This document shows, one piece after another, positions 1 through 19,948 of a DNA stretch of 30,436 nt; positions within the stretch are counted from its first letter, which is position 1; every line of letters starts with the position of its first letter. The stretch comes from Oculatellaceae cyanobacterium bins.114 (GTDB lineage: Bacteria > Cyanobacteriota > Cyanobacteriia > Elainellales > Elainellaceae), in contig JANRJA010000021.1 of NCBI GenBank assembly GCA_033764315.1, positions 1 through 30,436 on the forward strand. The letters run 5' to 3'. The notes under the pieces are model-generated. The model was given only the letters and a program-made list of their open reading frames with translations. It was not told the origin of the DNA and searched no databases. Both the position numbers and the translations under genes were made by a program.

Positions 1-193
1 AGGCAAAGGCAATGGCTCAAATCCTGATGCTGGGAAAGCTTTCTGACTCGCCTCCGCCCTATCGAATGTGGCTACGGCTATACCTCCTGACTTTTTTCTC
101 TCCTCTCATGCGATCGCTCTAGCCAGAGAAAATTTGGGGAACTGACCCAGCGAATGCTGCGGTTTCAACCGCCACTCCTCCAAGCATCAGATG

Positions 194-235
194 CACCCAA
201 CACAAAACACCCAACACAAAACACCCAACACAAAA
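194..235. repeat. Tandem repeat, 3 x 14 bp CACCCAACACAAAA (STRR-like)
   Basis: Exact copies at 194-207, 208-221 and 222-235. Confidence 0.9.
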
Positions 236-244
236 TTCAACAAA

Positions 245-356
245 ACGCGATGTGCAATTTAGGGATTTAGATCCCCGGTTTCTCGTTGGAGTTGACTGAA
301 AGGTGCCTTGTTACATCCCTAGAAACTGGGGGATCTGGAATAGTCACACATAGGGT
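245..356. mobile_element. ~110 bp MITE/REP-like dispersed repeat, copy 1
   Basis: Starts ACGCGATGTGCAA.TTAG...TTTAGATCCCCGGTT.CTCGTT like the copy at 26934-27044. Internal inverted repeat AGATCCCC.GTTTCT / AGAAAC.GGGGATCT. Confidence 0.65.
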
Positions 357-370
357 AAGCAAACGCAAAA

Positions 371-3300
371 TTAAGCAAACGCATAAGTTGCAGTGTTGGT
401 TGCAGCAAGAGAGCCAGCAATATTAGCCGCACTCAACCCAGTCACCCCTTCCAGGCTCATGAGCAAAGCACCAGAACCAAATCCTCCAGCGTTGGCAAGC
501 CGCAGTTGAGTGCTAGCTCCACTGACGACGACATCAACCTGCTCGATTTCAGTGATGGCTAATCGATCAAAACCCAGGTTAAACTGTCGAACCACGTCAC
601 TCCCGTCGCCACGCGCATAGAGCACGGTGTCGCGATCGCCATCCACACCCAGAGCCAAGACATCGTTCTCTGCCCCACCCACCAGCACATCGGCACCTAA
701 ACTTCCAGTGAGTGCATCTGCTCCATTGCCACCTCGCAAAATATCATTGCCAGCACTACCGTCTAAGGTGTCGTTGCCATCGCCCCCCTCAAGCAAATCA
801 TCTCCGGCTCCGCCATCGAGCACATCATTGTCTTTACCGCCATCAAGATAGTCGTTGCCTGACTCACCAGCCAATGTATCGTTTTCAGTGCCCCCTTTCA
901 AAAAATCATCACCCTCTCCTCCATTCAATCGGTCAATTCCGGCATCTCCATCAAGCACATCATTTTCGGTACCCCCGTTGAGGCGATCGCTCCCGGTGCC
1001 CCCGTTGAGATAGTCTTTTCCAGCGTCTCCTGCTAGCACATCATCCCCTGACTCGCCCCAGAGATAGTCATCTCCGTCTTGTCCTGACATGGAGTCATTT
1101 TGCTCGCCGCCATACAGAGAGTCATTTCCGACATCACCCCGCATGATATCTTGACCAAGTCCTCCAATCAGCGTGTCATTGCCTGTTTCGCCATTAATTC
1201 TGTCGTCACCTGCATCGCCACTCACATAATCGCTGCCGGGTCCTGCCGTGATCGTGTCGTTGCCTGCTTCACCCCAGAGCGAGTCGTTGCCCAACCCACC
1301 CATCAAGGTGTCATTTCCAGAACCCCCCATCAAAATATCTTGACCTGCAAAACCAATGACTCGATCAATTCCTGATTTGCCCAACATCACATTAGCGGCA
1401 TTGGTTCCCTTGAGCAGATTATTACGCCAGTTGCCTGAGATGGTTCTAACTCGCTGAGGCGCAAAGACAGAATCGGCTCCAGTTATCCGAGTTTGCCCAC
1501 GAGCAGACCCATAGGTGGCATTTCCAGTGATGGTGTTATTGTTGTCTCCGAGCGATCGCTCACGAATGCTATAGCGAGCACGATTGACGAGAGAACTGCG
1601 AACGAAATTGTTTTGCAGCGTGTTGTAGGTGGAATAAGTCAGGTTGTCACTGTAAAGCTCAACTTCACTATACGCTTCATTACGTGACTGTGAATTATCA
1701 AATATCCAGTTGTTTGCAATCGTGTTACCCGATGAGCTAAGAACCGCAACCCCATAGCGACCATTGCGTTGAATAACATTACCTTCAATATCATTGCCGC
1801 CTTCTTCAAATGAATAAATACCATTCGTTGAATTCAACGCAATTTGGTTGCTTTGAATGAATAAGTTGCGACTTCCTAACTGAATAGTGACTCCATTACC
1901 TCCGTTATCAATACTGACATTGTTGCTGACACGTGTGTTTTCAGAGTCTGTCACCAGGTTAATTCCGTGGCGATCATTATTGAATGTCAAATTGTTTTCA
2001 ACAACTGAATCAATCACTTTGTCGAGCGTAATTCCATCTAGTCCGCTATTCTCAACGATGTTATTGCGAATTGTAAGATTTGTAGTAGGTGTCCCATTGG
2101 CTGAGTTTTCGTGAGGATCAAAACCATAGGATGATGTGTTACGAATATAGAGATTTTCAAATGAGCTACTGTCATAAACTCCATAAACACCATACTTATT
2201 GCTTTTAACAGACTGGCGTTCACGGTTGCCATCGATCTGTAAATCGGCGATATGAGCGTTATAGATTTCAACGTTAGAACTCAGTAGACCCGGTCCTTGA
2301 GAACGAATGATGCCTGCATCACTCAGTGTGGCTTGATCTGTAAGACGAATGATGGTACGCCAACCAGATCCGCGTAAGGTAACGTTGCTTCTCAAGCGAA
2401 TGTTATCTGAGGTCGTAAACACTCCTGGTAATAAGACAACCGTTCCACTCCCTGCTGCATTAACTTCAGCGATCGCCCGATTAATGATTTCCTGATCATT
2501 GGTTCCAGTTGCCCGATAGGTTGCTCCTGCGGCTGTGACGGCGTCGGTGTCACTGGCAGCAATCACAATAGTCAGACTGGTTCCGGCGGGTGGGATGGAC
2601 GTGATGCGTGACGTGCTTGAAACATAGGTATTGACCTGGACAGGTTGATTGAGAGCATTGCCACTGGCATCATAACGACGCTCATAGGTGCGGAAACTGG
2701 TATGGGTTGGGTCAGCCGAATGCCAGACGATCGCATAGCCACCCGATGCCAAGCCTGTAATAGCCGCTCGACCGCGATCGCTGCTAGGAAAGGTATTGAC
2801 TTGAAGATCTTGATTAACAGGAGCACCGTTGACATCAAATTGTCGGGCAAAGACAGTGTAATCATCTGTAAAATTGGGCCGCGATCGCCATGTAATCACA
2901 AATCCACCCGTTGCTAATGCCGCAATTTGAGGCGTATTTTGTTCGCCTACGGTTCCAGCATTGACGACAAATTCGTTACCAATGGCTGTGCCATCGGCAC
3001 TAAAACGACGAGCGACAATGCCGTAGTTATCTCCATCCTGTCCGTAAGAGGCCCAAGTGGCGACAAATCCTCCATCCTTGAGAGCCGCGATCGCCGGACG
3101 ATTTTGAGAACCACTTGTGTAGGAGTTGATGCGAAATTCATTGCCAACCGCTGCACCACTAGCGTTATAGGTCTGAGCATAAACGCCATATTCGCTGCCA
3201 TCTTGAGCATTGGAGTGCCAACTAATCAGAAAATCACCATTTTGCAGAGCGGTCACGGCAGGTTTTGCCTGGTTGCCATCGGTAAAGGTGTTGACAGGAA

Positions 3301-3811
3301 ACGCTCTGCTCACAGGAGTGCCATCGGCAGCAAACACACGGGCAAAGACACTCAGTGATTGTTCATCGTCTTCTTGTTGACGTGAATCCCAAGTGATTAC
3401 AAAGTTGCCATTGCTAAGGGTGGCGATCGCCGCATTTTGTTGAAAGTTAGCTTGAGCTGTGTTGACTAAAAACTCCCCACTTAAAGCATTGCCTGCGGCA
3501 TCATAGCGACGGGCAAAAATGTCGTATTCAGTGCCTCCAAAGTTGCGAGATTGCCACGTCACAACAAAACTACCATCTGGATAAGTTGCGACAGCCGGAG
3601 TATCCTGGTTATCTTTTGTCGTGACATTAATTAAAAATTCCGTACCAATCGGATTGCCAGAGCCATCATAACGTTGAGCATAGATGCCAGTATCCATGCC
3701 ATCTTGATATTCTGACTGCCAAACAGCAATAAATCCCCCATTGGGCAAGGCCGCCACCGCAGGATGAGGCTGTTTGTATTGAGGCCGCGTGGTAATGTCA
3801 AAACCTGTCAT
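371..3811 (-). CDS. Secreted AlgE-type mannuronan C-5 epimerase/lyase-like protein: seven propeller-like repeats, right-handed beta-helix A-module, RTX Ca-binding repeats
   Basis: Seven ~55-aa repeats (PAVAALxxGGFVxxW..ARRYDxxG..EFxVN). Central module has LQIDGNR, YGFDPHE, GLDGITLD and NNDRHGIN, as in Azotobacter AlgE A-modules. Many GGxGxDxLx nonapeptides and no N-terminal signal peptide, consistent with type I secretion. Confidence 0.85.
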   Translation of the reverse strand: MTGFDITTRPQYKQPHPAVAALPNGGFIAVWQSEYQDGMDTGIYAQRYDGSGNPIGTEFLINVTTKDNQDTPAVATYPDGSFVVTWQSRNFGGTEYDIFARRYDAAGNALSGEFLVNTAQANFQQNAAIATLSNGNFVITWDSRQQEDDEQSLSVFARVFAADGTPVSRAFPVNTFTDGNQAKPAVTALQNGDFLISWHSNAQDGSEYGVYAQTYNASGAAVGNEFRINSYTSGSQNRPAIAALKDGGFVATWASYGQDGDNYGIVARRFSADGTAIGNEFVVNAGTVGEQNTPQIAALATGGFVITWRSRPNFTDDYTVFARQFDVNGAPVNQDLQVNTFPSSDRGRAAITGLASGGYAIVWHSADPTHTSFRTYERRYDASGNALNQPVQVNTYVSSTSRITSIPPAGTSLTIVIAASDTDAVTAAGATYRATGTNDQEIINRAIAEVNAAGSGTVVLLPGVFTTSDNIRLRSNVTLRGSGWRTIIRLTDQATLSDAGIIRSQGPGLLSSNVEIYNAHIADLQIDGNRERQSVKSNKYGVYGVYDSSSFENLYIRNTSSYGFDPHENSANGTPTTNLTIRNNIVENSGLDGITLDKVIDSVVENNLTFNNDRHGINLVTDSENTRVSNNVSIDNGGNGVTIQLGSRNLFIQSNQIALNSTNGIYSFEEGGNDIEGNVIQRNGRYGVAVLSSSGNTIANNWIFDNSQSRNEAYSEVELYSDNLTYSTYNTLQNNFVRSSLVNRARYSIRERSLGDNNNTITGNATYGSARGQTRITGADSVFAPQRVRTISGNWRNNLLKGTNAANVMLGKSGIDRVIGFAGQDILMGGSGNDTLMGGLGNDSLWGEAGNDTITAGPGSDYVSGDAGDDRINGETGNDTLIGGLGQDIMRGDVGNDSLYGGEQNDSMSGQDGDDYLWGESGDDVLAGDAGKDYLNGGTGSDRLNGGTENDVLDGDAGIDRLNGGEGDDFLKGGTENDTLAGESGNDYLDGGKDNDVLDGGAGDDLLEGGDGNDTLDGSAGNDILRGGNGADALTGSLGADVLVGGAENDVLALGVDGDRDTVLYARGDGSDVVRQFNLGFDRLAITEIEQVDVVVSGASTQLRLANAGGFGSGALLMSLEGVTGLSAANIAGSLAATNTATYAFA

Positions 3812-3877
3812 ATCGGATACTCCAGAGATGAGAAATACGATTTGTAATTGACTGGGAACAGGAATAAGGCGTCAGGA

Positions 3878-6058
3878 TTATGGGCGAGTTGTATTGCTCG
3901 AAATGGTGCTCAGTGTCTCTGTTGTCGAGAGATTGCCTCTCAACTGAGTATTGGTCGCGTCGATCAATACAACATCTTTGGCATTGGAATACTGATCGAG
4001 TGACACATATTCCACGACAACTTGGTTTGTATTTTGCAACACTAGACTTCGACCAGCACTGCGTTCTAGTCGCAAGTTGCGTAGTGATGATTGAGTCACA
4101 TGATTGAGAAAAATGCTGTCTGGAATGGAAGCACCTGACTCAAATTGAGGTCGCAGCGAGAATCCTTGTAAATGCACTTGTTCTAAGGGCAACGCTGTTT
4201 TTGGATCAGGGGCGATCGCGACAATCGCATGGGCTTCGGCTTGTGTTTTGGCATCAAACACCACATTCAAAATAGTGCGCTCGGCTCCCTGTCCGACAAT
4301 CATGGTCTGACTCCGCCGAATCGTGACAGGGTGAGAAAACAATAATTCCCCAATCGGTAAATTGATTTTCACGGTGCCTTGTTCCTTTGATAGCCCATTC
4401 ACTAATGCTTGCAGCGGAGCAGCATCATCTTTGTCATCGCCAGCAATGACCCCGTAATCTCTAGCATTAACTGTTTGAATGATGGGAGCTTCATAGTGAC
4501 TGTTTCGCCAAATGGCAACCATATCTTTAACGGGACTAAGCACCCCCAAGACCCAAAACAGCAACACTCCAAAGCAAAAGATTTGGGTAAAGAGCAAAAA
4601 CTTTGAAACACCTTGAGCAATTTGGACGGCGCGAGAATTGCCATCGGCTGAAAGTTTGCGATCGCCCCGATTAAACCAACGTTGTTGTGCCAGGTTCATC
4701 AGTGTCCAAATTTTGATCAACGCAGATGACCACTGCGAAAGCAACAGTAACGGTAAATGCACAGGCTTGAGAATCGATTCTCGATTCCAAAAGATGAGGG
4801 TCAATGTCAGCGATCGACTGAACAACAGCCAACACACAAGAACCCCCACCACTAACCATTTGCCGGTGAAAAGAGCGACTAATAGCAAGAAAGGTGAGAC
4901 TAGACAAGTCCACATGCTGAGGCGTTGATCAAGCAAACATAACCAGACAAACAATCCAGTTCGTCGGGGTCCCAATGCCAAAGCTCGATTGCCATTTCGC
5001 AGCATATTGCCAAACCAGCGACGCATATTTTGATACATGCGATTAAACAGCGAACCTGAGACTGTCTCAATGGAATAAACCACCACATCTGGAATGTACA
5101 GCAGTTCATAATTTCCTCGACGCAGCAACCAATACCAGGTCGTTTTGTCATCTCCAGAAAGAAATTTAAACTGTCCCCACAGCCAGTCGTTCAACATGTC
5201 ATTCTCTAACTGATCCGCAAAGGTTGGGTGCAGAGCCGCTTCACTGCGATAAAGCGAAAATCGTCCCGTTAAACACAACACTTTCTTAGACAGTGAGATT
5301 GAACACATTTGGTAGTGTCGTTGCGAAAACCGCAAATGAAACCACTCAGAGAAGATATAAGACCCCGACACAATAGGAACTTCATCCGTTGTGAGTGCTC
5401 CTAATTTAGGAAACATGACAAAGAATGGAAGACACCGTTGCAGCGTACCGGGGGTGATGACTGAGTCTCCGTCCATCAACCCGACAATTGTGTTTTTAGG
5501 TAAGTCAAGACGGGCAAGTTCTCTCAACCCCACGGCCAGTGCTTTGCGTTTGCCTTGTCCTGGATCAGCAACATGATAAACCTGCACAGAAGACAAGGTT
5601 GGATCTGCCAATTGCAGTGCTCGAATAATATCTGCATCTTCTTCGGGGCCGCTGCTGACGGTTACTAAAATCAGGGGTTGAGAAAACGCTTTTGCTTCTT
5701 CAGCGATCGCCCGAAACACCCGTTTGGTAATCCACGGTTTCTCTTTATAAGTTGGCACTAATAAACAGATAGGGGGCAGATCCTCTAGCGGAATTGCATT
5801 TGCTTGCCGACGCCAACGAGCAAAGACAAACTTTTGATAGATCCCCGATCGCAGCAGATGCAACCCAAACCAGAGCCAACGCCAAATACCAATGATTCCT
5901 AAACCGATTAAACTCGACCAACCCAAAGCTGCTAGTTTTGCTGGGTTATGTAAAGAGTAGAGACCAATCAAACCAAAAACTGCGATCGCCAACACAGCAA
6001 TCTGATTAAGATTTTGGATGATTTTTTGCCAAAGCGTTGAGACAGCCGCTTGAATCAT
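3878..6058 (-). CDS. alg8: Alg8-like GT2 mannuronan polymerase with C-terminal pectate-lyase-3-like beta-helix domain
   Basis: N-terminal TM helices, then PTYKE, DGD, LTGRFSLYR, LSGDDK and NMRRW GT2/Alg8 motifs, further TMs, then a VNARDYGVIAGDDKDDAAPLQAL beta-helix cap. ATG at 6058 preferred over the ORF-track start at 6115. Confidence 0.8.
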   Translation of the reverse strand: MIQAAVSTLWQKIIQNLNQIAVLAIAVFGLIGLYSLHNPAKLAALGWSSLIGLGIIGIWRWLWFGLHLLRSGIYQKFVFARWRRQANAIPLEDLPPICLLVPTYKEKPWITKRVFRAIAEEAKAFSQPLILVTVSSGPEEDADIIRALQLADPTLSSVQVYHVADPGQGKRKALAVGLRELARLDLPKNTIVGLMDGDSVITPGTLQRCLPFFVMFPKLGALTTDEVPIVSGSYIFSEWFHLRFSQRHYQMCSISLSKKVLCLTGRFSLYRSEAALHPTFADQLENDMLNDWLWGQFKFLSGDDKTTWYWLLRRGNYELLYIPDVVVYSIETVSGSLFNRMYQNMRRWFGNMLRNGNRALALGPRRTGLFVWLCLLDQRLSMWTCLVSPFLLLVALFTGKWLVVGVLVCWLLFSRSLTLTLIFWNRESILKPVHLPLLLLSQWSSALIKIWTLMNLAQQRWFNRGDRKLSADGNSRAVQIAQGVSKFLLFTQIFCFGVLLFWVLGVLSPVKDMVAIWRNSHYEAPIIQTVNARDYGVIAGDDKDDAAPLQALVNGLSKEQGTVKINLPIGELLFSHPVTIRRSQTMIVGQGAERTILNVVFDAKTQAEAHAIVAIAPDPKTALPLEQVHLQGFSLRPQFESGASIPDSIFLNHVTQSSLRNLRLERSAGRSLVLQNTNQVVVEYVSLDQYSNAKDVVLIDATNTQLRGNLSTTETLSTISSNTTRP

Positions 6059-6204
6059 AACAGACCACACAAGAAGAGAAAAATGAAGAGAGAAGAGGAA
6101 AGCAAAGAGAAACAATAAAGGATCAAGAATGAAGGATAAAAGTAGATCTGATTGTTACTTTTAGCCGTTAACTGCTAACCTTCATCCTTGCCTTAAACCA
6201 TCCT

Positions 6205-6639
6205 CTAATGGGTTACAGAAGCGCGAGCATAATCATCTTGTAGGCGAACAATGTCGTCTTCTCCCAGATACTCTCCGTTTTGCACTTCAATCAATACGAG
6301 TGGCAAAATTCCAGGATTCTCTAACCGATGATTGGTACAAGAAGGAACATAGGTCGATTGGTTTGAAGAGAGTAAGGTGACAGAGTCTCCACAATATACT
6401 TTTGCTGTTCCTGAAACGACTATCCAATGCTCACTACGGTGGTGATGCATTTGTAAACTAAGGCGTTGTCCGGGCTTGACTTCAATACGTTTAATCTTGT
6501 AACCCCGTCCTTCTTCTAAGACAGTAAATGATCCCCAGGGGCGGATCTCCGTCGCTGCAATTCCTTCTAACACAGGGGATAAAGCAGGAGTAGATACGGG
6601 GACAACAGCTACCTTAGAGACGGTTTGAACGTGAGACAT
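6205..6639 (-). CDS. Mannose-6-phosphate isomerase type II C-terminal cupin (AlgA/ManC PMI domain only)
   Basis: RPWGSF, LSLQMHHHRSEHWIVVSG, HRLENPG, IEVQNGEYLGEDDIVR. GGAGG RBS upstream. Confidence 0.9.
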   Translation of the reverse strand: MSHVQTVSKVAVVPVSTPALSPVLEGIAATEIRPWGSFTVLEEGRGYKIKRIEVKPGQRLSLQMHHHRSEHWIVVSGTAKVYCGDSVTLLSSNQSTYVPSCTNHRLENPGILPLVLIEVQNGEYLGEDDIVRLQDDYARASVTH

Positions 6640-6982
6640 CTGGCTTCCTCCACAACAGGAATCAATAATGATGAGATGAAATAGTAGTGAAACGGTCGGG
6701 TCAATTTTGAGGTTGGGTGCAACACCATCCTGGACAAGAGACGTTGTTGCACACCGGATTGTGGAATGCGCTAGACTCTAGGTCTGGAATCTAGAGTTCT
6801 AACTGGACATTAGGCTCGGATTCTAAGCGGGATACTTCAGGCTTCGATCGCTGCACTCTGGACTATATAGCGGCGTTTTGGGGTCTGAAGTTTTCTTTTG
6901 AGCAGAGAGAGCGATGCAACAGAGTTGTCCTGATGGAGTAGTCGCTGTCTGGGTTTGGGATAAATCATTGACTCATTCTCCC

Positions 6983-8296
6983 TTAAGCCACTGGGGCAGG
7001 TGTAGGCATCTCCAACTTGCGAATTGCTTGGGTTTCCCAAGTCATCAGGTCTAAAACAGGCTTTTCAGTGGCTTCCAGTGCAGCGGTAAATTCAGGACGA
7101 TGTTGAGTCAAAACGACAGCATCTGTTTGTTGCAGCGTCTGATCTAAGTCAGCGCAAAAGACTTGGCGAATTTGGGGCAACTGGCGTTCTAGATATTCCC
7201 GGTTGCTGCCCAACATGGTGTCAAGGTCAATGTCAGCGTCATGCACCACAATTTTGATGCCGTCTTGCCAGAGTTGATTAATCAGGTTGATCACTGGGCT
7301 TTCGCGCAGGTCATCGGTACCTGCTTTAAAGCTCAGACCTAAGATCGCCACACTGCGAACCCCCAGGTCATGTACTTTTAACCGAGCCGTGTCGATGTGC
7401 AGTTGATTGCTGGGCAAAATGGATTCCAGAATAGGGAGTTTTTCACCCAGACGGTAGGAGTTAAAGACCAGAGAACGTAAGTCTTTGGGCAAACAGGAAC
7501 CACCAAAGGCAAAGCCTGGTTTGAGATATTTGGGAGAAATGTTGAGCTTGGTGTCAGCACATAACAACTGCATGATGGTGTGACTATCGACTCCAATCGA
7601 GTCGCAGAGACGACCAATCTCATTGGCAAAACCAACTTTGAGTGCATGGAAAGCATTGTTTACAACTTTCAGGACTTCTGCATCCTCTAGTGCAATGCGA
7701 TAAATGGGAGCCTCAATTCCGTTGTAGAGTGCAGCGACGGCATCACCAGAACGGCTGTCAAGTTCGCCAATCGCAGTCAGAGGGGGTTGATAAAAATCCT
7801 TAACCGCTGTCGTTTCTCGCAAAAACTCTGGGTTCATTGCCAAGCCAAAATCAGTGCCCACTTGCTTGCCAGAGTGCTCTTCTAAAATAGGCAATACTTG
7901 ATTGCGAGTAATGCCAGAGAAGACAGTGCTACGCATGACGACTACATGATAGCGATCGCTCTGCTTCATGCCTCGACCGATTTCACGCGCCACACTGTAA
8001 ATATAGTTGAGCACAGGGCTGCCATCGGGGGCACTGGGGGTGCCAACACAAATCAAGGACATATCTGCCCAAGAGACATAATCTGTGCCATTGGTCACTG
8101 CTTTAAGATTGCCGTTGTCTAACCCTTGACGAATCAAATCATCCAAGTCTGGTTCTTTGATTGGGCTGAATCCCTGGTTAAACTTTTCGACTTTTTCAGG
8201 ATTGACTTCAACTCCAACTACATCATGACCCCGCTCAGCCAAACAGGCTGAGACAACGGTTCCAACATAGCCTAAGCCCCATACTAATACGCGCAT
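6983..8296 (-). CDS. algD: GDP-mannose 6-dehydrogenase (UDP-glucose/GDP-mannose dehydrogenase family)
   Basis: GLGYVG Rossmann motif, ICVGTPS, RSTV, NPEFLRE, DTKLNISPKYLKPGFAFGGSCLPKD (AlgD-type catalytic Cys segment), LGLSFKAGTDDLRESP. AAGGAG RBS. Confidence 0.88.
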   Translation of the reverse strand: MRVLVWGLGYVGTVVSACLAERGHDVVGVEVNPEKVEKFNQGFSPIKEPDLDDLIRQGLDNGNLKAVTNGTDYVSWADMSLICVGTPSAPDGSPVLNYIYSVAREIGRGMKQSDRYHVVVMRSTVFSGITRNQVLPILEEHSGKQVGTDFGLAMNPEFLRETTAVKDFYQPPLTAIGELDSRSGDAVAALYNGIEAPIYRIALEDAEVLKVVNNAFHALKVGFANEIGRLCDSIGVDSHTIMQLLCADTKLNISPKYLKPGFAFGGSCLPKDLRSLVFNSYRLGEKLPILESILPSNQLHIDTARLKVHDLGVRSVAILGLSFKAGTDDLRESPVINLINQLWQDGIKIVVHDADIDLDTMLGSNREYLERQLPQIRQVFCADLDQTLQQTDAVVLTQHRPEFTAALEATEKPVLDLMTWETQAIRKLEMPTPAPVA

Positions 8297-8486
8297 CGAT
8301 TTACTCCTTGATGATGTAACAGATTCAGGTCAGATCGTCCCTCAACAGAACTCGATAACCGTTCTGTGAGTAAAGGACAACCGTTTAATGCAGGTGCCTC
8401 ACGCAAAAGTAGCTACGTCATTGGCGACCCTCCTTATTGAAGTGAAGTGGAAAAACGGTGACCTCAACAGGCGAGATCTCAACAGA

Positions 8487-9770
8487 TCAAAAGTTGAGAA
8501 ATGACTGCTTACTAAAGGTAAGTTGTGCTCCTTGCCCAACTCCACAAAACTGCTGTGCACGCTCGTAGTTAGAGGGTGGCGGAATTCGCACCGTCACTCG
8601 TGTAAGAGCTTGTGCTAACAGATCAGGGGGAATCACAGGCACCAAAGCTTGGACTTGAGTACGGCGATTTTGCTCTTCGTTAAGATTGACCCCGCTAATC
8701 GGCTGCATCAAATCAACTTCCCCGCTGATTGCCTCTGGATATCCAGCTAACTCGACCGTAACGGGTTTTTGCACGTCGATTTGGCTTGCTTCTTTGGCAC
8801 TGACAATGACCTCAACCCACAAATCTGAACAGTCTAACAGGGTCAGAATAGGTTCTGAGCGATTGACCTGCTCGTTGCTTTCTTGCTCAGTGTGATAGAC
8901 CACACCCGTCATCGGAGCCGTCACCTCTAAATCTTGGCGATCGCTATAGAGTGAGCGAGCTTGTTTGAGGCGTTGCTCAGCACTTAACACCTCTGTTTTC
9001 AGAGTTGCCATTTGAGCTGAATATATCTGAATTTGCTCTTTTAATTGAGCTGTGTCTTGAGTGAAGGTGTTATTTAATGAGGGATATTGACTCATAATCG
9101 TGCGCGATCGCGATGCCCCTACCTCTGTTTTTAAGGCTTGCACCGCTTCTTGGGCACGTCGCACTTCTGCCTCTGCCGATTGCCAAGTGGCACGCAATTC
9201 ATCTACCCGTTGGGCTGAAACGGCTCCCTCATTTAGCAATTGTTGATAACGTTCATAGGTTGTTCGAGCAGTCGTTGCCTCAGCGATCGCCCCATCTAAC
9301 ACGGCTTGCTGTTGCGACATGTCACTAGAGGTTAACGTTGTTTCAACAGCCCAAACCGACTCATGTCGATTTGCCAGGGAATTGAGTTGATCTTCTAAAA
9401 ATGTTTTTACTTCTGATGCAGCCTGGAGTTGATTTTTCTTGGCTTCGAGATCACTTTCTAATTGCAACAACGATTGCTCAGTGGTGTGATCAATATTGAC
9501 TCTAGCCAATACCTGTCCCGATTCAACTTGCACACCTGGGCGAGCGTAGAAATCACCGATATTGCCGTCTATGGGCGATCGCAGACGTACAATTCGACCA
9601 TTCACGACTCCCCCATCAAGAACGAGGTGAGTCAGACGATAACTAATCGAGCTAGCCCCAATCAGAACAGCAGTCACCCCCAAGCTAAGGAAGGCTGAGC
9701 CAATTACCAAACGTTGCCAGGGAATACGAATCGGTAGAGTTGTTAGCTCATTCAATTTTGGATTTTGCAT
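8487..9770 (-). CDS. HlyD/membrane-fusion family protein, Alg44-like but without PilZ domain
   Basis: One N-terminal TM, lipoyl half-motifs (LRSPIDG..V.SGQVLA; VTAPMTGVV), long coiled coil, C-terminal beta-barrel. ATG at 9770 preferred over 9851. Confidence 0.8.
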   Translation of the reverse strand: MQNPKLNELTTLPIRIPWQRLVIGSAFLSLGVTAVLIGASSISYRLTHLVLDGGVVNGRIVRLRSPIDGNIGDFYARPGVQVESGQVLARVNIDHTTEQSLLQLESDLEAKKNQLQAASEVKTFLEDQLNSLANRHESVWAVETTLTSSDMSQQQAVLDGAIAEATTARTTYERYQQLLNEGAVSAQRVDELRATWQSAEAEVRRAQEAVQALKTEVGASRSRTIMSQYPSLNNTFTQDTAQLKEQIQIYSAQMATLKTEVLSAEQRLKQARSLYSDRQDLEVTAPMTGVVYHTEQESNEQVNRSEPILTLLDCSDLWVEVIVSAKEASQIDVQKPVTVELAGYPEAISGEVDLMQPISGVNLNEEQNRRTQVQALVPVIPPDLLAQALTRVTVRIPPPSNYERAQQFCGVGQGAQLTFSKQSFLNF

Positions 9771-10900
9771 ACCAGTGCTCAAGAACGATGGACACAGATG
9801 AACCACAGATGGTTGTGATATTTGCCAACAAAATTGCCAAACAAACAACACGTCTAACCATGCAATGAGGCAAATATTGCATCAATATTTTTTGATGTCC
9901 AGGAAAACAACCTCTGCCGAGAAAATGTTCTTAATATGCTCAAAACATTTTTTACTGATTTGAACATATCCCCATATCTGGCATTTAGCTGATACTTAAA
10001 AAGTTAATTGACCAGCATAGAAAAAAATATAAAGTTTTTGCGAGGAAGGAATTTTTTGTATGAAGTTAATATGAAGTGATAAAATAAAAAAATAATTGTA
10101 AGACAATAAAAAACCGCAAACTTCTTGATTAACAAGGGTTTACGGTAAAAACTATTTTCAATAAAAAATATTGTTTTCTCTTTTAATTTTTTATATTTAA
10201 TTAGGAAAAATCCTATTTTTTCCTAATTTAGAATATAAATAAAAATTTAAATAAGCTGCCAAAAAATCTTATTTATATTCCATAAGTAACTGTGTAATAA
10301 AGATATCTAAGCTCATCTTGATGGGCGTAGTTTTCTCTAACTACTTAAAGTGACTGAAATCTTAATAATAAAAATTTTGATTTGGTTGTTTCCGAGGCTC
10401 TTGTGATTGCTGTAAAGAGTAATCCTCAATCGCCTTGGAGAATGATGAAAATGTTGAGGTCTACCTCTTATAACTGTTGTAACTGTGAAACAGGTGAGGA
10501 CAGATTCATTAGACCCAGTGCTGATTCATATTAAGAGTGAATAGTGAACCTTACTTGCGTCAAAGCTGTCGTATCAACTATCTCAAATTGGCTTGGATAT
10601 ACCTAGATTTAAATCTAGTGCTAAAGAAATACGTAATTGAAAATACCTAGTCAATAGTACTGATGAGGATCGTCATTCTTCGTCTGCCTCAAGGTATAAC
10701 TCTAAAATCGGAGCGCAGACCTAATCCAATTTTTTAGTCAAAAGAATTTTTCTAAAGTAATTTTTTTTAATCTCTAAAAAATTTATAGAAGTCCAAAAGT
10801 GCCTTAACCCTTTGATTTGCAAGACTTTTAAAATATTTCTATTTATCTCCAGACTCAAATCTTTAAATAAAAGATGCGTTTTAATTGAACCAGAAAACTT

Positions 10901-10944
10901 AAAAAACTCACTCCACAGAGTGATTTATTTCTGTAGAATGAGTT
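10901..10944 (-). terminator. Probable intrinsic terminator of the CDGSH-DoxX-DODA-GST operon
   Basis: 15-bp stem (10905-10919 / 10930-10944) whose two mismatches are G-U pairs on the minus-strand RNA, followed by a U run. Confidence 0.55.
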
Positions 10945-11088
10945 CTTTAGGTGTTTAGCCACATCAACTTTTGGGAGTATCAAAAACTTAAAGCTGTATA
11001 TTGCTATACTCTTTGCCAGAGCTGTGCTGAAGCACCTGGCACTCTTTATTTTTTGATTGGCCAGTAATACGATTAATGAATTTATGAT

Positions 11089-12093
11089 TCAGACGAGAAT
11101 AGGGTGAGTTGTGGCTGGAGACGCTGGAAAGTGCAGGTTGCGATCGTGAGGCGCATCAAAGGCGATCGCTGGACCCATTGGAATAATACGATTTGGGTTT
11201 AATTCTGCGACCCCTGCATAATACAACTGCTTGACGTGTGTTGCGTCACACATCTCCTTTACACCGGGCTGCTGATACAAGTCACGAAAATAGTTCCACA
11301 AATTAGGGTAGTCTACTAAGCGTCGCAAATTGCACTTAAACAGCCCATGATATGCCAAATCAAACCGAAATAAGGTGGTGAAGATGCACCAATCTGCTAG
11401 GGTAACTTGATCACCACAGAGATAGCGTTGTTGACTTAACACAGTCTCCCAATGATCTAGTGCTTGAAATAACTCTGTCACCGCTTCTTCATAAGCTGCT
11501 TGAGACTTAGCAAATCCAGACCGATATACTCCGTTATTAATGGGTTGATAAATGGCATCGATCGTCTGGTCGATTTGCTGTTGTAAATGTTTAGGATAGT
11601 AATCAACACTGGCATGAGTCGCATCCTCATTAAACTCGGCGTTAAACATGGTAATGATTTGCCGAGACTCATTGTTAACGATCGTGTTGGTGTGCTTATC
11701 CCACAAGACTGGAACGGTGACTCGTCCTGTATACGTTGGGTTAGCCTTGACATAAATTTGCCAGAGAAAGTCAGCGTTGTTGACGTCATCTCGAACACAA
11801 CCGGGGTTGTCAGAAAAGGCCCACCCTTGTTCTGAAATGATTGGATCAACAATCGATAGCCCAACGACAGGTTCTAAACCTTTGAGTTTCCACAATAGGG
11901 CAGTGCGGTGTGCCCAGGGGCAACCCAATGAAATGTAGAGGTGATAACGTCCTGCTTCGGCTTTAAAGCCACTTGAACCGTCGGCTGTTACCCAATTGCG
12001 GAACAAGGTGGGCATACGCTGAAATTGCCCTTTTTCATTATGTTCTGTCCAAGCGGTAGTCCATTGACCGTTAACAAGTTGACCCAGTGCCAT
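11089..12093 (-). CDS. yqjG: Glutathionyl-hydroquinone reductase (GST Xi/omega-like, YqjG/ECM4 family)
   Basis: GRYHLYISLGCPWAHRT, TVPVLWDK, IVNNES, INNGVYRSGFA. Confidence 0.93.
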   Translation of the reverse strand: MALGQLVNGQWTTAWTEHNEKGQFQRMPTLFRNWVTADGSSGFKAEAGRYHLYISLGCPWAHRTALLWKLKGLEPVVGLSIVDPIISEQGWAFSDNPGCVRDDVNNADFLWQIYVKANPTYTGRVTVPVLWDKHTNTIVNNESRQIITMFNAEFNEDATHASVDYYPKHLQQQIDQTIDAIYQPINNGVYRSGFAKSQAAYEEAVTELFQALDHWETVLSQQRYLCGDQVTLADWCIFTTLFRFDLAYHGLFKCNLRRLVDYPNLWNYFRDLYQQPGVKEMCDATHVKQLYYAGVAELNPNRIIPMGPAIAFDAPHDRNLHFPASPATTHPILV

Positions 12094-14495: not shown

Positions 14496-14933
14496 ATGAA
14501 ACTCTCTGAGATTCTTCCTGAATTGACCGCTAAATTTGAGCCACATGAGCACAAAAAACGCCAAGTGCCGGGTGGGGCAGATTGGTATTTTGTTCCCTGG
14601 CAAACCGTTCGAGCACGGCTCAACCGCATCTGCCCAGAAGATTGGACCAATATTTACTCAGATCTCACCTTTACTGAAGGATATTGCATTATTGTATGCA
14701 CCTTGACCATTTGTAGTGTGAGTCATCAAGGCATTGGCTCAACCCCTATTGAAATGCTGAGTCAGGAAGGCAAAAACGTTGCTTATGGCGATCCGATTGA
14801 GCGAGCAACAGCGGATGCATTTAAGAATGCAGCGGAACAATTTGGCATTGCTGCCTATTTAGATGCTCAAAGTAATCCGATGAAAAAGAAGGCATTTGTT
14901 GAATATGTCAGTGGTCGCAGTAGAGCGGCTTAG
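14496..14933 (+). CDS. Rad52/Rad22-family ssDNA-annealing protein
   Basis: YFVPWQTVRARLNRICP..W, beta hairpin with QGIG, YGDPIERATADAFKNAAEQFGIAAYL: Rad52-like annealing-domain signature. Confidence 0.75.
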   Translation: MKLSEILPELTAKFEPHEHKKRQVPGGADWYFVPWQTVRARLNRICPEDWTNIYSDLTFTEGYCIIVCTLTICSVSHQGIGSTPIEMLSQEGKNVAYGDPIERATADAFKNAAEQFGIAAYLDAQSNPMKKKAFVEYVSGRSRAA

Positions 14934-14986: not shown

Positions 14987-15769
14987 TTAGGCAGTAAGCA
15001 CTTCATCTTTTAGATCACCAATAAACATATGTCCCGGTGCATGGGTAATGGCAAATTCGGGCTTTGCTTGGTCAATCGCGATTTGAGTTGTAACGCCACA
15101 AGCCCAAAAAACAGGGACTTCATCATCACCCAGCGTAACCGCGTCTCCATAGTCTGGACGAGACAAATCATCAATCCCAATTTTGTCTGGGTCGCTAATA
15201 TGAATTGGAGCTCCATGAGCTTTGTGATAACGCGCTGTTACTTCTACAGCTCGAACAACCTGGCGCACCGGAAGAGGACGCATAGAAACCACTAAAGAGC
15301 TAGAAAAAGTGCGGCTAGAAAAGCAGTCAATGGTTGTCTTATACATGGGTACATTCTTCTTCTCCTCAATATGGCGCACAGGTAAACCTGCGTTCAACAA
15401 AGCGTTCTCGAATGAAAAAGAACAACCAATCAGAAACGTAACGAGATCGTCTCGCCAAAGCGGTCGAATATCAGTTGTTTCCTCAACCAGTTCACCCTGA
15501 CGAAAAACGTTGTAGCGGGGTAAATCTGTTCTAATATCAGCACCGGGAGCCAACCATTTAGGCTCAAACTCTCCTGCATCTATCACATCAAGAACTGGGC
15601 AGGGTTTAGGATTGCGCTGGCAAAACAGCAAAAATTCAAATGCTAATGGGTACGGCAATATTACTAAATTAGCTTGAACGTATCCTGGTGCAAGCCCTGA
15701 TGTAGGAGTTGTTAACTGATTCGAGCGACAACGCTGACGAATCTCGGCAGGAAGCATAGAAACTGACAT
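14987..15769 (-). CDS. DUF1445/UPF0317 putative hydro-lyase (D-glutamate cyclase-like, YcsI family)
   Basis: PTSGLAPGYVQANL, FCQRNPKPCP, DIRTDLPRY, GCSFSFE, VPVFWACGVT, ITHAPGHM. ATG at 15769. Confidence 0.9.
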   Translation of the reverse strand: MSVSMLPAEIRQRCRSNQLTTPTSGLAPGYVQANLVILPYPLAFEFLLFCQRNPKPCPVLDVIDAGEFEPKWLAPGADIRTDLPRYNVFRQGELVEETTDIRPLWRDDLVTFLIGCSFSFENALLNAGLPVRHIEEKKNVPMYKTTIDCFSSRTFSSSLVVSMRPLPVRQVVRAVEVTARYHKAHGAPIHISDPDKIGIDDLSRPDYGDAVTLGDDEVPVFWACGVTTQIAIDQAKPEFAITHAPGHMFIGDLKDEVLTA

Positions 15770-15864
15770 GATTGATTCTCCCAGTACAGCCACACGTAAT
15801 ACCGCTACAAGTTCTTAATCTGTTAATTCAAGCTGGTCTTGAACCATCTTATTTATGGCACTTG

Positions 15865-18800
15865 TCAACCTGTGGGGGTTCCAAATCCACCACCGCCTGG
15901 GGTTTCGATCGCAAAAATATCGCCTGGATGCATTTGCACTTCCGCTTTGCTGCTGAGAACTTCAATTGTGCCATCTCGACGAATGACCTGGTTGTATCCC
16001 ATTGCCCCAGGTGCACCGCCAGCCAAGCCAAAGGGTGGAATGACGCGATGACCAGATAAGATCGCTGCGTTCATCGCCTCTCGAAACTGAATACGGCGAA
16101 TGGCTCCATTACCCCCTTTATGTTGCCCCTGACCACCACTATGGGGACGAATGGCAAATTCTTGAACGAGTACTGGAAACCGCCACTCTAACACTTCTGG
16201 ATCCGTCAAGCGGGAGTTCGTCATATGGGTTTGGACGGCATCTGTTCCATCAAATGCTGCGCCTGCCCCGGAACCACCACAGATCGTTTCGTAATACTGA
16301 TATTTCTCGTTTCCAAAGGTGAAGTTGTTCATGGTGCCCTGTGCAGCCGCCATAATTCCCAACGCACCATACAAGGCATTGGCGATCGCTTGTGAGGTTT
16401 CGACATTGCCTGCGACCACCGCAGCAGGATAGCGTGGATTAAGTAGACAACCCTCTGGAATGATGATTTCCAGGGGTTTAAGACAACCGGCGTTGAGCGG
16501 AATGTCATCTTCAACTAATGTCCGAAATACATACAGCACAACAGCTTTGCAGATCGCTAGAGGAGCATTCAAATTGGTGGACTGCTGCGGTGAAGTGCCG
16601 GTGAAATCAACCCGAGCCGATCGCTGCTGATGGTCAATTGTAATTTGGACGCAAATCTCGCTGCCATCGTCCATTGCACAGCTAAAACTGCCATCGCTCA
16701 AGACATCGATCGCGCGTCGCACTGATTCTTCTGCATTGGCTTGAATATGCTGCATGTAGGCTTGCACGGTTGCTAACCCGTAATGATTAACCATGCGATG
16801 TAGCTCCTGCACACCCCTTTCATTAGCAGCAATCTGCGCGTGCAGATCAGCAAGATTCTGAGCCGAATTGCGAACTGGATGAGGATTATCAGTTAACAAT
16901 TTCAACAGCATGGCTTCCTGAAACTGGCCTTGCTTCACAATCTGAACGTTATCGAGCAAAACACCTTCTTGATCAATCGTGGTGCTGTAGGGCGGCATAG
17001 AACCCGGAGTAATGCCGCCAATATCAGCGTGGTGTCCGCGTGAGGCAACGTAAAACTGTGGTGTGCTGCTTTCTAGAAACACAGGTGTGATCACTGTGAT
17101 ATCAGGGAGATGGGTGCCGCCATTGTAAGGATTGTTGGAGATGTAAACATCTCCTGGTTTCATCTGGTTACCCTTGGCTTGCATGAGGCTACTCACACTT
17201 TCGCTCATCGACCCCAAATGCACCGGGATATGGGGTGCATTGGCAACCAGTTGCCCATCCTGGTCAAAAATAGCGCAAGAGAAATCAAGCCGTTCTTTAA
17301 TGTTGACTGAGTAGCTGGTGTTTTGCAGCGTCACCCCCATTTCCTCAGCGATCGCCCGGACTAAATTGTTGAAGATTTCCAGAAGAACGGGGTCAGGGGC
17401 GACGGTTAAAGACAGCAATGCGTTGAATTCACTCTCTTGTCTTACACTCTCATCTCTACTCAAAATTAAATGATTTTGGGGTGTTAATTCTGCATACCAT
17501 CCAGGCTCAATCACATTAGTTCCGGTCGGTTCAAGAATGAGCGCAGCCCCAATAATGCGATCGCCAGGTCTAAGGTCGTGGCGTTGATAAACAGGTGTAT
17601 TGTGCCAGTTACCTTTGGTATAGATCTGAATCGTTGCGATCGAGTTGAGGGGTGCCGCTCGACCAGATGTCAGAATCGGTTCTTGATGGGTACTAGTTTG
17701 TCCGACAATTTCCGCTGAAACAGCTTCTACAATCAGAACTTTATCTGGCATTGTAAACCCGTATCGCTGTTGATAGGCTTGCTCAAAATGTGTACGAAGA
17801 CTAACACAACGGTGGACATAATCTGTTACGTGTTCTCTTGCGTGATCCGTTGTAATTGTGGGATCACCATAATCGACGACAAGGGCAGAATCTGTACCTC
17901 CATAACGGAGATGCACTCTGAACAAAGTGTGAATTTGCGCCGCATCAATGCCTTGTTCAACCAGTTCAGTCTCTCCTTGCGCGGCGAGTACGCTCAGCAT
18001 TTGATCTAGCATGGGCACAACATCTGAAGCCAGTTCAACTTCGACCGCTTTTTCTTTGAGCGATCGCACATCTGCCAGACCGATACCATAAGCAGAAAGA
18101 ACTCCAGCATAGGGATGAATAAAAATTTGCTTCATTCCCAAGGCTTCGGCAATTAAACAGGCATGTTGTCCACCCGCACCGCCAAAACAGCACAGCGTAT
18201 ATTGGCTGACGTCATAACCCCGCTGAACCGAGATTTTCTTAATCGCATTTGCCATTTTGTCGATAGCGATTGAGATAAATCCTTCAGCGATTTGCTCTGG
18301 TGTACGCTCACTGCCTATCTTTGCAGAAATCTCGACGGCCAGTTGAGCAAACATTTGTTGCACAATTTCTGCGTCTAGAGGTAAGTTGCCCTCCGTCCCA
18401 AATACTGTCGGAAAGAAGGCGGCTTGCAGTTTGCCTACCATCACGTTGCAGTCTGTCACCGTCAAGGGGCCCCCCCGACGGTAGCAAGCAGGCCCCGGAT
18501 CGGCCCCTGCCGATTCTGGCCCTACCCGATAACGGTAACCGTCAAACGTGAGAATTGATCCACCGCCTGCGGCAACAGTGTGAATAGACATCATCGGTGC
18601 CCGGAGCCGAACGCCTGCCACTTCGGTTTCAAAGCTGCGTTCATATTCCCCATTGAAGTGAGACACGTCGGTTGAGGTGCCACCCATATCAAATCCAATA
18701 ATCTGATCAAATCCTGCCATTGTGCTGGTCTTGACAGCTCCCACAATACCACCTGCTGGCCCTGATAAAATACTGTCTTTGCCCTGAAAGCGATCGGCTT

Positions 18801-19611
18801 CAATCAATCCCCCGTTGGATTGCATAAACATCAGTTTAGGAGCTAAGGGCGTTGTAGCGGTGGCTTCCCTTCCTGCTAATGCAGTGGCTACTTGCTCCAC
18901 ATACCGTCGCAGAATGGGTGATAGATAGGCATCTACAACGGTTGTGTCTCCCCGACTGACAAGTTTCATCAACGGGCTTACCACATGGGAAACGGAAATT
19001 TGGGTGAAACCGATTTCACGCGCGATCGCCGCCATGTGTTGTTCATGCTGAGGGTAGCGATAGCCATGTAAAAACACGATCGCGCAAGCTCGAATACCAA
19101 CATCATAAGCCGATTGAAGAGATTGCATCAGGGTTTCATTGATCTGAATCGGAATTAATTGTTCTCCCTGAGCTGTATAGCGTTCTTCAACCTCAATCAC
19201 TTGCTCATAGAGCATTTCCGGTAATATGATGTGGCGTGCAAAAATGTCAGGACGATTTTGATACCCAATTCGCAGGGCATCGCGAAATCCTTTTGTAATG
19301 AGTAATAGGGTGCGATCGCCCTTTCGCTCTAACAGCGCGTTGGTTGCTACCGTTGTACCCATCTTTACGGCTGCAATTTGTTCTGTTGGAATGGGGGCAT
19401 CCACTGCAATGCCTAAAATCTCTCGAATCCCCTGAATGGCCGCATCCTGGTAGCGTTCTGGATTTTCAGACAGCAGTTTATGCACGACAATCTCACCATC
19501 AGGACGTGCTGCCACAATATCAGTAAAGGTGCCACCGCGATCGATCCAGAATTGCCAGCCGTATTGATTAGAACTAGCGATCGATAAGTTCTTTTCCTGA
19601 TCAAAACTCAT
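15865..19611 (-). CDS. oplAH: 5-oxoprolinase (ATP-hydrolysing), fused hydantoinase A/B type
   Basis: [80 protein letters not shown] at 19611 preferred over 19665. Confidence 0.93.
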
Positions 19612-19948
19612 GGGTATTTCGCTCCATACAGATATACCAATATACAGTTGAGTGATTTTCATCACATGGAAGATTTAATAACAATCAAGTTGTGATCAAT
19701 TTGTTTAAGCAAAACTGCAAGTCAGTTTTAAGAGTCATCAGGGAATGTCCAAGAAAACATGAAAATAATGACTGTAATGATAAACAAAGGAGAAGAGGAG
19801 TTGAGTTAAAGTTCTTCTTCCGCCTTGGGAAAAAGATTGAGGGTGAGGGCTACAAATGTGAGATACTCTCTGGCAACCTACTTTATATGTTATAGAGTAA
19901 AACACCGCATATCAAAATATGGTGTGAGATATAGTTTGGAGCCTACTA

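Follow-up and report, generated by a model that had tools for sequence, protein, structure and literature searches.

A gene at the end of a five-gene cluster in a filamentous cyanobacterium encodes what we can assign with high confidence as a member of the AlgE family of alginate epimerases with an intact active site. The gene lies on contig JANRJA010000021.1 of Oculatellaceae cyanobacterium bins.114; the window analyzed here is the entire 30,436-bp contig, and the source genome is a 6.64-Mb draft in 251 contigs that is 90.7% complete. The product, 1146 aa long and encoded on the minus strand (371..3811), combines a predicted beta-propeller, an AlgE-type A-module and an RTX/R-module-like C-terminus. 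Its family matches, its predicted fold, its complete catalytic set and its synteny with a GDP-mannose dehydrogenase gene are evident from the analysis; on this basis we infer the substrate, activity and secretion route, and the protein is probably a mannuronan C5-epimerase, Ca-dependent and secreted by a type I secretion system (T1SS), that acts on the polymannuronate of its own cluster.

An earlier note on this DNA, made from the sequence by eye, had placed the motif YGFDPHE at 2108-2128, and the motif is indeed there: back-translated into a degenerate pattern, it has a single match in the window (2108..2128, minus strand; none in 100 dinucleotide-preserving shuffles), where it forms residues 562-568 of the open reading frame (ORF) and corresponds to AlgE4 Y149-E155, including the proposed acid Y, D152, the proposed base H, and E155. 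The two motifs said to follow it are found downstream in the same frame: GLDGITLD (residues 590-597; 2021..2044, minus) corresponds to AlgE4 G171-D178 and includes L172, D173 and D178, and NDRHG (residues 612-616; 1964..1978, minus) corresponds to AlgE4 N193-G197 and includes R195 and H196. A GGAG sequence lies approximately 10 nt 5' of the ATG. The span that the note gave for its feature, 1460-2570, is nearly exact for the A-module, which in frame occupies 1457..2569 (residues 415-785), but the note did not state that the gene is on the minus strand; it captured the A-module and the RTX repeats, and it missed the 414-residue N-terminal domain and the surrounding cluster.

The assignment of the A-module, a right-handed parallel beta-helix, rests on both sequence and structure comparisons. 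A phmmer search of the PDB sequences, in which query residues 437-770 align with PDB chain residues 16-361, matches the A-modules of AlgE6 (5lw3, E 4e-34) and AlgE4 (2pyg, E 1.7e-31), followed by the alginate epimerase/lyase deposited as 'mannuronan 5-epimerase' (8ja4, E 1.4e-28); AlgG is matched at only about 2e-5. For residues 415-785, AlphaFold2 run with a 30-row alignment gave a model with a predicted local distance difference test score (pLDDT) of 95.1 and a predicted template-modelling score (pTM) of 0.93, and in a Foldseek search the top-ranked structure for this model is AlgE4 (2pyg_B; E 3.2e-21, template-modelling scores 0.83/0.82, root-mean-square deviation (rmsd) 2.2). AlgE6 and 8ja4 rank after AlgE4, with scores of 0.82-0.84 for AlgE4 and AlgE6, and AlgG is far below (E 4e-10, score about 0.5). 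The superposition on the AlgE4 A-module that the earlier note had proposed as a check was made with VIA-align, and both AlgE4 and AlgE6 overlay the model with Z 48.5 and an rmsd of 1.4 Å over 340 residues at 33% identity, so that the claim of an AlgE-type A-module is borne out. On the same scale 8ja4 reaches Z 40.6, phi29 gp12, the highest-scoring beta-helix from outside the alginate enzymes, Z 39.6, and AlgG Z 33; AlgE4 and AlgE6 thus stand about 9 Z units above phi29 gp12 and 15 above AlgG. Identity as an AlgG-type periplasmic epimerase was considered and rejected, since the AlgG equivalog model NF038177 gives 21-22 bits against a cut-off of 700.

All four catalytic residues that had been aligned by eye in the note are exactly matched in a HMMER alignment, with Y562, D565, H567 and D597 falling on AlgE4 Y149, D152, H154 and D178; the same alignment places E568, D592, R614 and H615 on E155, D173, R195 and H196. 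In the account available in part in PMC8824271, H154 is the base and Y149 the acid, D152 and D178 handle the substrate or its carboxylate, and D173 and R195 belong to a network. From the overlay and the alignment, these residues are predicted to line the groove of the cyanobacterial protein. To place the query among its relatives we used a 30-sequence A-module alignment (29-85% identity to the query) that covers both cyanobacterial types described below, Pseudomonas proteins and others. In AlgE4 numbering, Y149, G150, P153, H154, E155, D173, G174, D178, N193, R195, H196 and G197 are invariant in all 30 sequences, and D152 is kept in 29.

From work on AlgE7, the excerpted text of PMC8824271 names R148 as the main lyase determinant and K117, F122, G148 and L172 as marks of pure epimerases. 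The query has K at 117, S at 148 (different from both the G of the epimerases and the R of the lyase) and L at 172, a signature that leans toward the epimerases, as judged from sequence, and is not identical to one. Across the 30 sequences S is the commonest residue at position 148 (17 sequences, against 5 with G, 3 each with H and Y, and 1 each with R and A), and L the commonest at position 172 (22 sequences, against 4 with V, 2 with K, and 1 each with Q and F). In a search of 1.84 billion representative proteins the number of A-module matches rises from 63 at E<=1e-30 to 607 at E<=1e-10 and to 3048 at E<=1e-3; among the best 150, YGx[DN]PHx is present in 133, and the residue preceding the motif Y is most often G (99 motif copies), followed by R (14), S (8) and H (8). 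Since S is rare in this position in the wider set, the serine state at 148 is a feature of the clade. The cyanobacterial A-modules also have a loop after K117 that is 6-7 residues shorter than that of the Azotobacter and Pseudomonas types.

The RTX repeats that the note had seen C-terminal to the A-module are confirmed by Pfam HemolysinCabind (E 2.2e-60, 11 stretches) and form an array of Ca-binding nonapeptides at residues 811-1053 (653..1381, minus) with approximately 27 units, 23 of them strict matches. The AlgE4 R-module (2agm) is matched by residues 992-1142 (phmmer, E 6e-7), and a non-repeat tail at the C-terminus (residues 1054-1146; 374..652, minus) is presumed to be the T1SS secretion signal region. 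Neither a hydrophobic N-terminus nor a transmembrane-like segment is found in the 1146-aa protein, and two HlyB-type T1SS ABC transporters score above the curated cut-off elsewhere in the source genome. The note's proposal of a secreted, Ca-dependent enzyme is plausible from the RTX repeats, the lack of a hydrophobic N-terminus and these transporters, and type I secretion, with a putative C-terminal signal, fits the sequence without being proven by it. At the DNA level a tandem-repeat finder run on the epimerase gene gave nothing relevant, the protein repeats having diverged in their coding sequence. A short tandem repeat of three copies of an approximately 14-base unit lies 3' of the epimerase stop near the contig end (window ~205-250); a downstream neighbor of the gene could be missing because the contig ends 370 bp after the stop.

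The N-terminal domain (residues 1-414; 2570..3811, minus) has no Pfam match. It consists of seven 55-residue repeats, each anchored by and ending in W-x-S, and its model (pLDDT 83.9, pTM 0.86) folds each repeat into four strands to give a predicted 7-bladed beta-propeller. The best structural neighbor is the propeller of the cyanobacterial CylK (E 1.6e-12, TMq 0.69), followed by the 7-bladed bacterial lectins CV39L, PLL and PHL (TMt about 0.70), all at about 13% identity; the closest ESM-Atlas clusters carry no Pfam family, and the domain is the sole copy in the source genome. A carbohydrate-binding or anchoring role is proposed for the propeller, which would probably attach the enzyme to a glycan or to the sheath.

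The epimerase gene is the last of five genes at 371-9851, all on the minus strand. Next to it lies a family-2 glycosyltransferase gene (GT2; 3878..6115, 745-aa ORF, Pfam Glyco_tranf_2_3 E 1.6e-30) that we call Alg8-like; database homologues begin at residue 16 of this ORF, and transmembrane segments flank the glycosyltransferase domain on both sides. The JGI pipeline names its homologues 'mannuronan synthase' or 'glycosyltransferase Alg8' (982 matches at E<=1e-3), and among the named ESM-Atlas clusters those of Pseudomonadota Alg8 lie nearest to it (score 0.98). After its last transmembrane segment the GT2 closes with a beta-helix of approximately 200 residues (3878-4522, minus), which homologues share and in which YGxDPH does not occur. 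As a periplasmic guide, this helix might take the part of AlgG, AlgX or AlgK. Its detectable likeness to other proteins is confined to the N-cap, which resembles that of the A-module and of RbmB lyase; against the A-module, hhalign gives a probability of 16% with only the 63-column N-cap aligned.

Further upstream are a stand-alone mannose-6-phosphate isomerase (PMI) cupin corresponding to the C-terminal domain of GMP/PMI enzymes (6205..6639, minus; E 4.6e-50) and an AlgD-like GDP-mannose 6-dehydrogenase gene (6983..8296, minus). The AlgD-like protein matches the P. aeruginosa GDP-mannose 6-dehydrogenase 1mfz over residues 1-405 with E 5.3e-118 and 398 bits, compared with E 2.8e-69 and 237 bits for the best UDP-glucose dehydrogenase; by sequence it is closer to GDP-mannose dehydrogenase than to the UDP-sugar dehydrogenases. 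The first gene of the cluster encodes a HlyD-family membrane-fusion protein (MFP; 8487..9851, minus) with one transmembrane segment (residues 46-71) and no PilZ domain, presumed from synteny to be the counterpart of Alg44. Upstream of the cluster lies a 1.2-kb ORF-free, AT-rich region (9852..11088, 29% GC) that is presumed to hold the promoter and might serve as an extended regulatory region; Rfam gives nothing there at gathering thresholds and, at E<=1, two chance-level miRNA matches only. In 1-11200, promoter-like sites are not enriched (14 vs 15.8 in shuffles), and the terminator-like sites (17 vs 10.2 in shuffles) include none that is informative. Beyond the cluster, a 145-aa ORF at 14496-14933 (plus strand) matches the Rad52/Rad22 family (Pfam E 1.6e-7) and adjoins genes for a D-glutamate cyclase and for a fused 1266-aa 5-oxoprolinase (the latter at 14987-19665).

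The association of these genes is not confined to one genome. As the earlier note had remarked, the phylum is unexpected, and over its full length the protein has its nearest named homologues exclusively in cyanobacteria: Oscillatoria sp. FACHB-1407 (85% identity), Crinalium (68%), Synechococcales and Elainellaceae, including Elainella. Their sole label in the database is the generic 'right-handed parallel beta-helix repeat-containing protein', and Pseudomonas RTX/Ig proteins follow at about 31% identity. A locus scan with a 10-sequence alignment as query, taking one genome per species, gave 45 loci, 16 of them cyanobacterial (L002-L017), and the gene content of all 45 was determined by tblastn with the window proteins. 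Among the 16 cyanobacterial A-module loci, GT2 is present in 15, the AlgD-like gene in 14, the MFP in 13 and the PMI cupin in 3; where a gene is lacking, the locus is cut by a contig end. The gene order MFP-AlgD-(cupin)-GT2-epimerase holds in the cyanobacterial loci with the exception of L012, and YGxDPHE is kept in 16/16.

Two architectures are found among these loci. The propeller-A-RTX arrangement occurs in eight (L002-L009), and in the other eight (L010-L017; for example L010:7976-11137) a PPC domain is combined with one or two A-modules per protein; L007 encodes both, with the PPC type at L007:6504-8252. Locus L012 has four motif copies, at 6355, 8005, 10442 and 12098, a multiplicity that recalls AlgE1-7 of Azotobacter. 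A PL14 polysaccharide-lyase gene accompanies the A-module in 11 of the 16 cyanobacterial loci, with a 28-residue fragment match in L009; the gene of L010 (11287-12177) has a Pfam E of 3.6e-64, and counterparts are found in L003-L006, L011, L012, L014-L017 and L056-L059. The source genome has two PL14 matches on other contigs (C97:87693-88280 and C141:22781-23173), one of them interrupted by a TAG.

In related clusters the MFP often has an additional N-terminal cytoplasmic domain, namely an EAL domain (E 1e-47 to 1e-51) in L005, L056 and L060 (L005:1898-4042, L056:6780-8900, L060:11145-13994) or a receiver domain (L004:3017-4882, L009:489-2363, L061:127-1953), and the MFP of the window has neither. 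DDFGTG and EGVE are catalytic motifs of EAL domains; the EAL copies here keep EVL, and both of these motifs are absent. The MFP looks like a partner of the synthase, an Alg44 analogue with a different sensor; it is not for epimerase export, because it is retained where the epimerase has no RTX region. Outside the cyanobacteria, two loci from Defluviicoccus (Alphaproteobacteria) metagenome-assembled genomes encode A-modules of 29-30% identity with the motif GYGFDPHE (L018:5882-6949, L019:10001-11068), each paired with a GT2 that is 40% identical to the synthase of the window.

To assess how widespread the system is, we searched 400 other cyanobacterial genomes sampled evenly across the phylum. 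The A-module is found at E<=1e-30 in 1 of the 400 (G098) and the Alg8-like GT2 at E<=1e-60 in 6. Beside the six GT2 genes, the MFP is present in 6/6, PL14 in 4/6, AlgD in 2/6 and the A-module in 1/6. A search of five of the GT2 genomes in full recovered an AlgD homologue at E<=1e-60 in two (G098 and G172) and none in G083, G194 and G080, which are each 99% complete and whose loci (L056, L058 and L059) have MFP-GT2-PL14 and no A-module. The AlgD-like gene adjoins the A-module wherever the flank is available, in 14/14 loci and also in G098. That the A-module always comes with AlgD, and that the core of synthase, MFP and PL14 can come without it, supports mannuronan as the substrate; the numbers in this co-occurrence are small, and related genomes are not independent of one another.

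These observations suggest the following route. The PMI cupin and the AlgD-like dehydrogenase would supply GDP-mannuronate, which the Alg8-like GT2 would polymerize with the help of the MFP and move out of the cell. The epimerase would leave through one of the T1SSs of the genome, type I secretion being proposed because the protein has no signal peptide, and would fold on binding Ca2+; its A-module would then turn mannuronate in the polymer into guluronate. By analogy with AlgE4 and AlgE7, H567 would abstract H-5 and Y562 would re-protonate the opposite face, with D565, D597 and E568, possibly with Ca2+, neutralizing the carboxylate. PL14 would trim the product. The new G-block pattern that the note had raised as a possibility is speculative.

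Several points weigh against this route. No Alginate_exp outer-membrane porin is found in the 90.7%-complete genome. The GT2 matches no NCBIfam model, which bears on its assignment to Alg8; against the PDB the single sequence finds nothing, and a profile finds weak N-cap and GT2 matches (E 0.006-0.5), so that 'Alg8-like', drawn from automatic names and language-model neighbors, stays a lead, if a well-supported one. The synthase family may make other polyuronates, because its core occurs without AlgD in three genomes, and PL14 also includes glucuronan lyases. Within the A-module, a 6-residue insertion follows E155 in the cyanobacterial sequences, and position 148 holds neither G nor R. AlgE enzymes have a hydrogen-bond network of D119 and K117, with F122, close to the catalytic Tyr and His; K117 aligns in the query, but D119 and F122 have no clear equivalents, which cannot be assigned because the loop after K117 is shorter; according to the part of PMC8824271 that treats these mutants, D119A and D119N leave AlgE7 with 0.5-2% activity. 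Finally, homology alone is no proof of activity, because AlgY of Azotobacter is described in PMC4444821, as far as the excerpt goes, as an AlgE homologue inactive on mannuronan.

The alternatives concern what the A-module does and to which polymer. It could be mainly an alginate lyase or a bifunctional epimerase/lyase, similar to AlgE7 or 8ja4, that trims or remodels the polymer and does not build G-blocks; epimerases and lyases of the A-module fold share a common active site and first step (PMC8824271, in part), the 8ja4/8jaz match is strong in both sequence (E 1.4e-28) and structure (Z 40.6), position 148 lacks the G of pure epimerases, and the altered 118-127 loop adjoins the catalytic Tyr. 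We consider this unlikely, since R148, the main lyase determinant of AlgE7, is absent as well (S is in its place), K117 and L172 are in their epimerase states, and AlgE4 and AlgE6 outscore 8ja4 in every comparison; moreover, a dedicated lyase is already available, in the form of a separate PL14 in related clusters and the two PL14 matches in the genome itself. Quite unlikely, in our estimate, is a protein of AlgE fold that does not act on mannuronan, whether an AlgY-like Ca-binding matrix protein or adhesin, or an enzyme that modifies another polyuronate made by the GT2. The AlgY precedent, the likeness of the propeller and long RTX array to surface and matrix proteins, the GT2/MFP/PL14 core without AlgD in 3/5 genomes and the poor conservation of the D119/F122 region all speak for it. 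The catalytic set, however, is invariant across the 30 sequences down to 29% identity and the motif is kept in all 16 cyanobacterial loci, which points to selection on catalysis, and it is a GDP-mannose dehydrogenase gene that adjoins the A-module in each of the 14 loci with an available flank and in G098.

An RTX cytolysin or toxin-like protein in which the beta-helix is incidental is highly improbable. The top-scoring PDB and NCBIfam matches do include CyaA and RTX hemolysins, but these matches span the nonapeptide repeats only (residues 800-1107), the RTX_toxin model gives 156.7 bits against a cut-off of 1000, the protein has no pore-forming hydrophobic domain and the cluster has no acyltransferase partner; identity as an RTX toxin was rejected because only the repeats match. 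A mannuronan C5-epimerase acting on the product of its own cluster is our preferred reading.

Compared with AlgE1-AlgE7 of Azotobacter vinelandii (2PYG/2PYH for AlgE4, 5LW3 for AlgE6), the protein is alike in the A-module fold (a beta-helix of about 385 residues in the AlgE family), the active-site residues, among them the motif YG(F/I)DPH(D/E), the RTX repeats C-terminal to the A-module, the R-module-like tail and the lack of a signal peptide. It differs in that AlgE enzymes start with the A-module (PMC4444821, excerpted text), whereas here a 7-bladed propeller precedes it; in that AlgE proteins have discrete R-modules of 4-7 repeats each, whereas here there is one continuous array of about 27; and in the shorter loop after K117, the 6-residue insert after E155 and S148. 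The AlgE genes, moreover, form a separate algE cluster, whereas this gene lies inside a biosynthetic cluster, in a cyanobacterial host. In being a secreted, multi-domain protein with one A-module, RTX repeats and accessory domains it resembles Pseudomonas syringae PsmE and the related Pseudomonas RTX/Ig proteins, as these are described in the excerpts available. The accessory N-module of PsmE is, in the same excerpts, an SGNH acetyl-hydrolase, whereas the propeller here is of no known family, and the Pseudomonas A-module proteins keep the long 118-127 loop and G148, unlike the cyanobacterial one.

The cluster likewise departs from the Pseudomonas/Azotobacter alginate operon, algD-alg8-alg44-algK-algE-algG-algX-algL-algI-algJ-algF-algA, of which the five genes here share the AlgD-like dehydrogenase, the Alg8-like GT2, an MFP in the place of Alg44 and the PMI that forms the C-terminal domain of AlgA. 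Pfam finds no AlgK, AlgX, AlgL, AlgI, AlgJ or AlgF domain in the window. In contrast to the operon, the synthase here has a C-terminal beta-helix, the MFP lacks PilZ and has relatives with EAL or receiver domains, the lyase of related clusters is PL14 in place of PL5, and the epimerase is of the extracellular AlgE type. AlgG (4NK6, 4OZY) shares the beta-helix fold class and a related chemistry and is a much weaker match; as given in part in PMC8824271, it is Ca-independent and without an equivalent of D178, which is present here. According to the excerpt of PMC4444821, all alginate-producing bacteria encode AlgG.

We see an even chance that some cyanobacteria hold a self-contained minimal alginate system, unlike the 12-gene operon of Pseudomonas and Azotobacter and without AlgG, AlgK, AlgX or a porin. 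Such a system might consist, at the same odds, of an Alg8-like synthase fused to a periplasmic beta-helix, an MFP that swaps PilZ for EAL, a receiver domain or nothing, AlgD and PMI, PL14, and extracellular epimerases of the AlgE type. These would come in two new forms, one with the propeller-A-RTX layout and the other (PPC-A) with as many as two A-modules in a protein and four copies of the motif in a single locus. What is new here is the domain architecture together with a compact alginate-like cluster in a phylum without a genetically defined pathway; the chemistry and the AlgE family are already known, and pipelines already label the neighboring synthase 'Alg8'.

Published accounts of cyanobacterial alginate are divided between genes and chemistry. 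In the portions available to us, a phylum-wide survey of cyanobacterial exopolysaccharide genes (2015) finds the Alg44 architecture nowhere and NosD/AlgG-like proteins in very small numbers (PMC4594306), and one survey concluded that a full alginate mechanism 'may be not truly present' (PMC6256058). Alginate was claimed in 2023 from a Synechocystis isolate by Fourier-transform infrared spectroscopy, gas chromatography-mass spectrometry and nuclear magnetic resonance, with no genes named in the excerpt (PMC10629183), and was called a common component of cyanobacterial exopolysaccharides in 2026, again without genes in the passage concerned (PMC13488342). Characterized AlgE-type epimerases are, in the excerpt of PMC4444821, from Azotobacter and a few Pseudomonas only. 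Our literature search, with subscription journals outside its coverage, returned no description of a cyanobacterial AlgE-type epimerase or of such a cluster, nor any paper relevant to the 8JA4/8XFQ structures or to the Alg8 catalytic residues D296/K297. The system may have been overlooked because it is rare, with the A-module in 1 and the synthase in 6 of the 400 sampled genomes.

The locus is thus a concrete, testable five-gene candidate for a route to an alginate-like polymer in cyanobacteria and, if the reading is true, would supply the genes that have been missing behind the chemical claims of 'cyanobacterial alginate'. AlgE-type epimerases set the gelling quality of alginate, and the A-modules of the clade described here share only 29-33% identity with those already known and differ from them in loops next to the active site; in AlgE7, this is the region that sets the product pattern and the balance of epimerase and lyase activity. 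If the reading is true, these organisms would offer a natural photosynthetic chassis, and their divergent A-modules could be used for tailoring G-content. If active, the system would bear on the biology of sheaths and biofilms, on how biocrusts bind metals and on the use of light to produce alginate.

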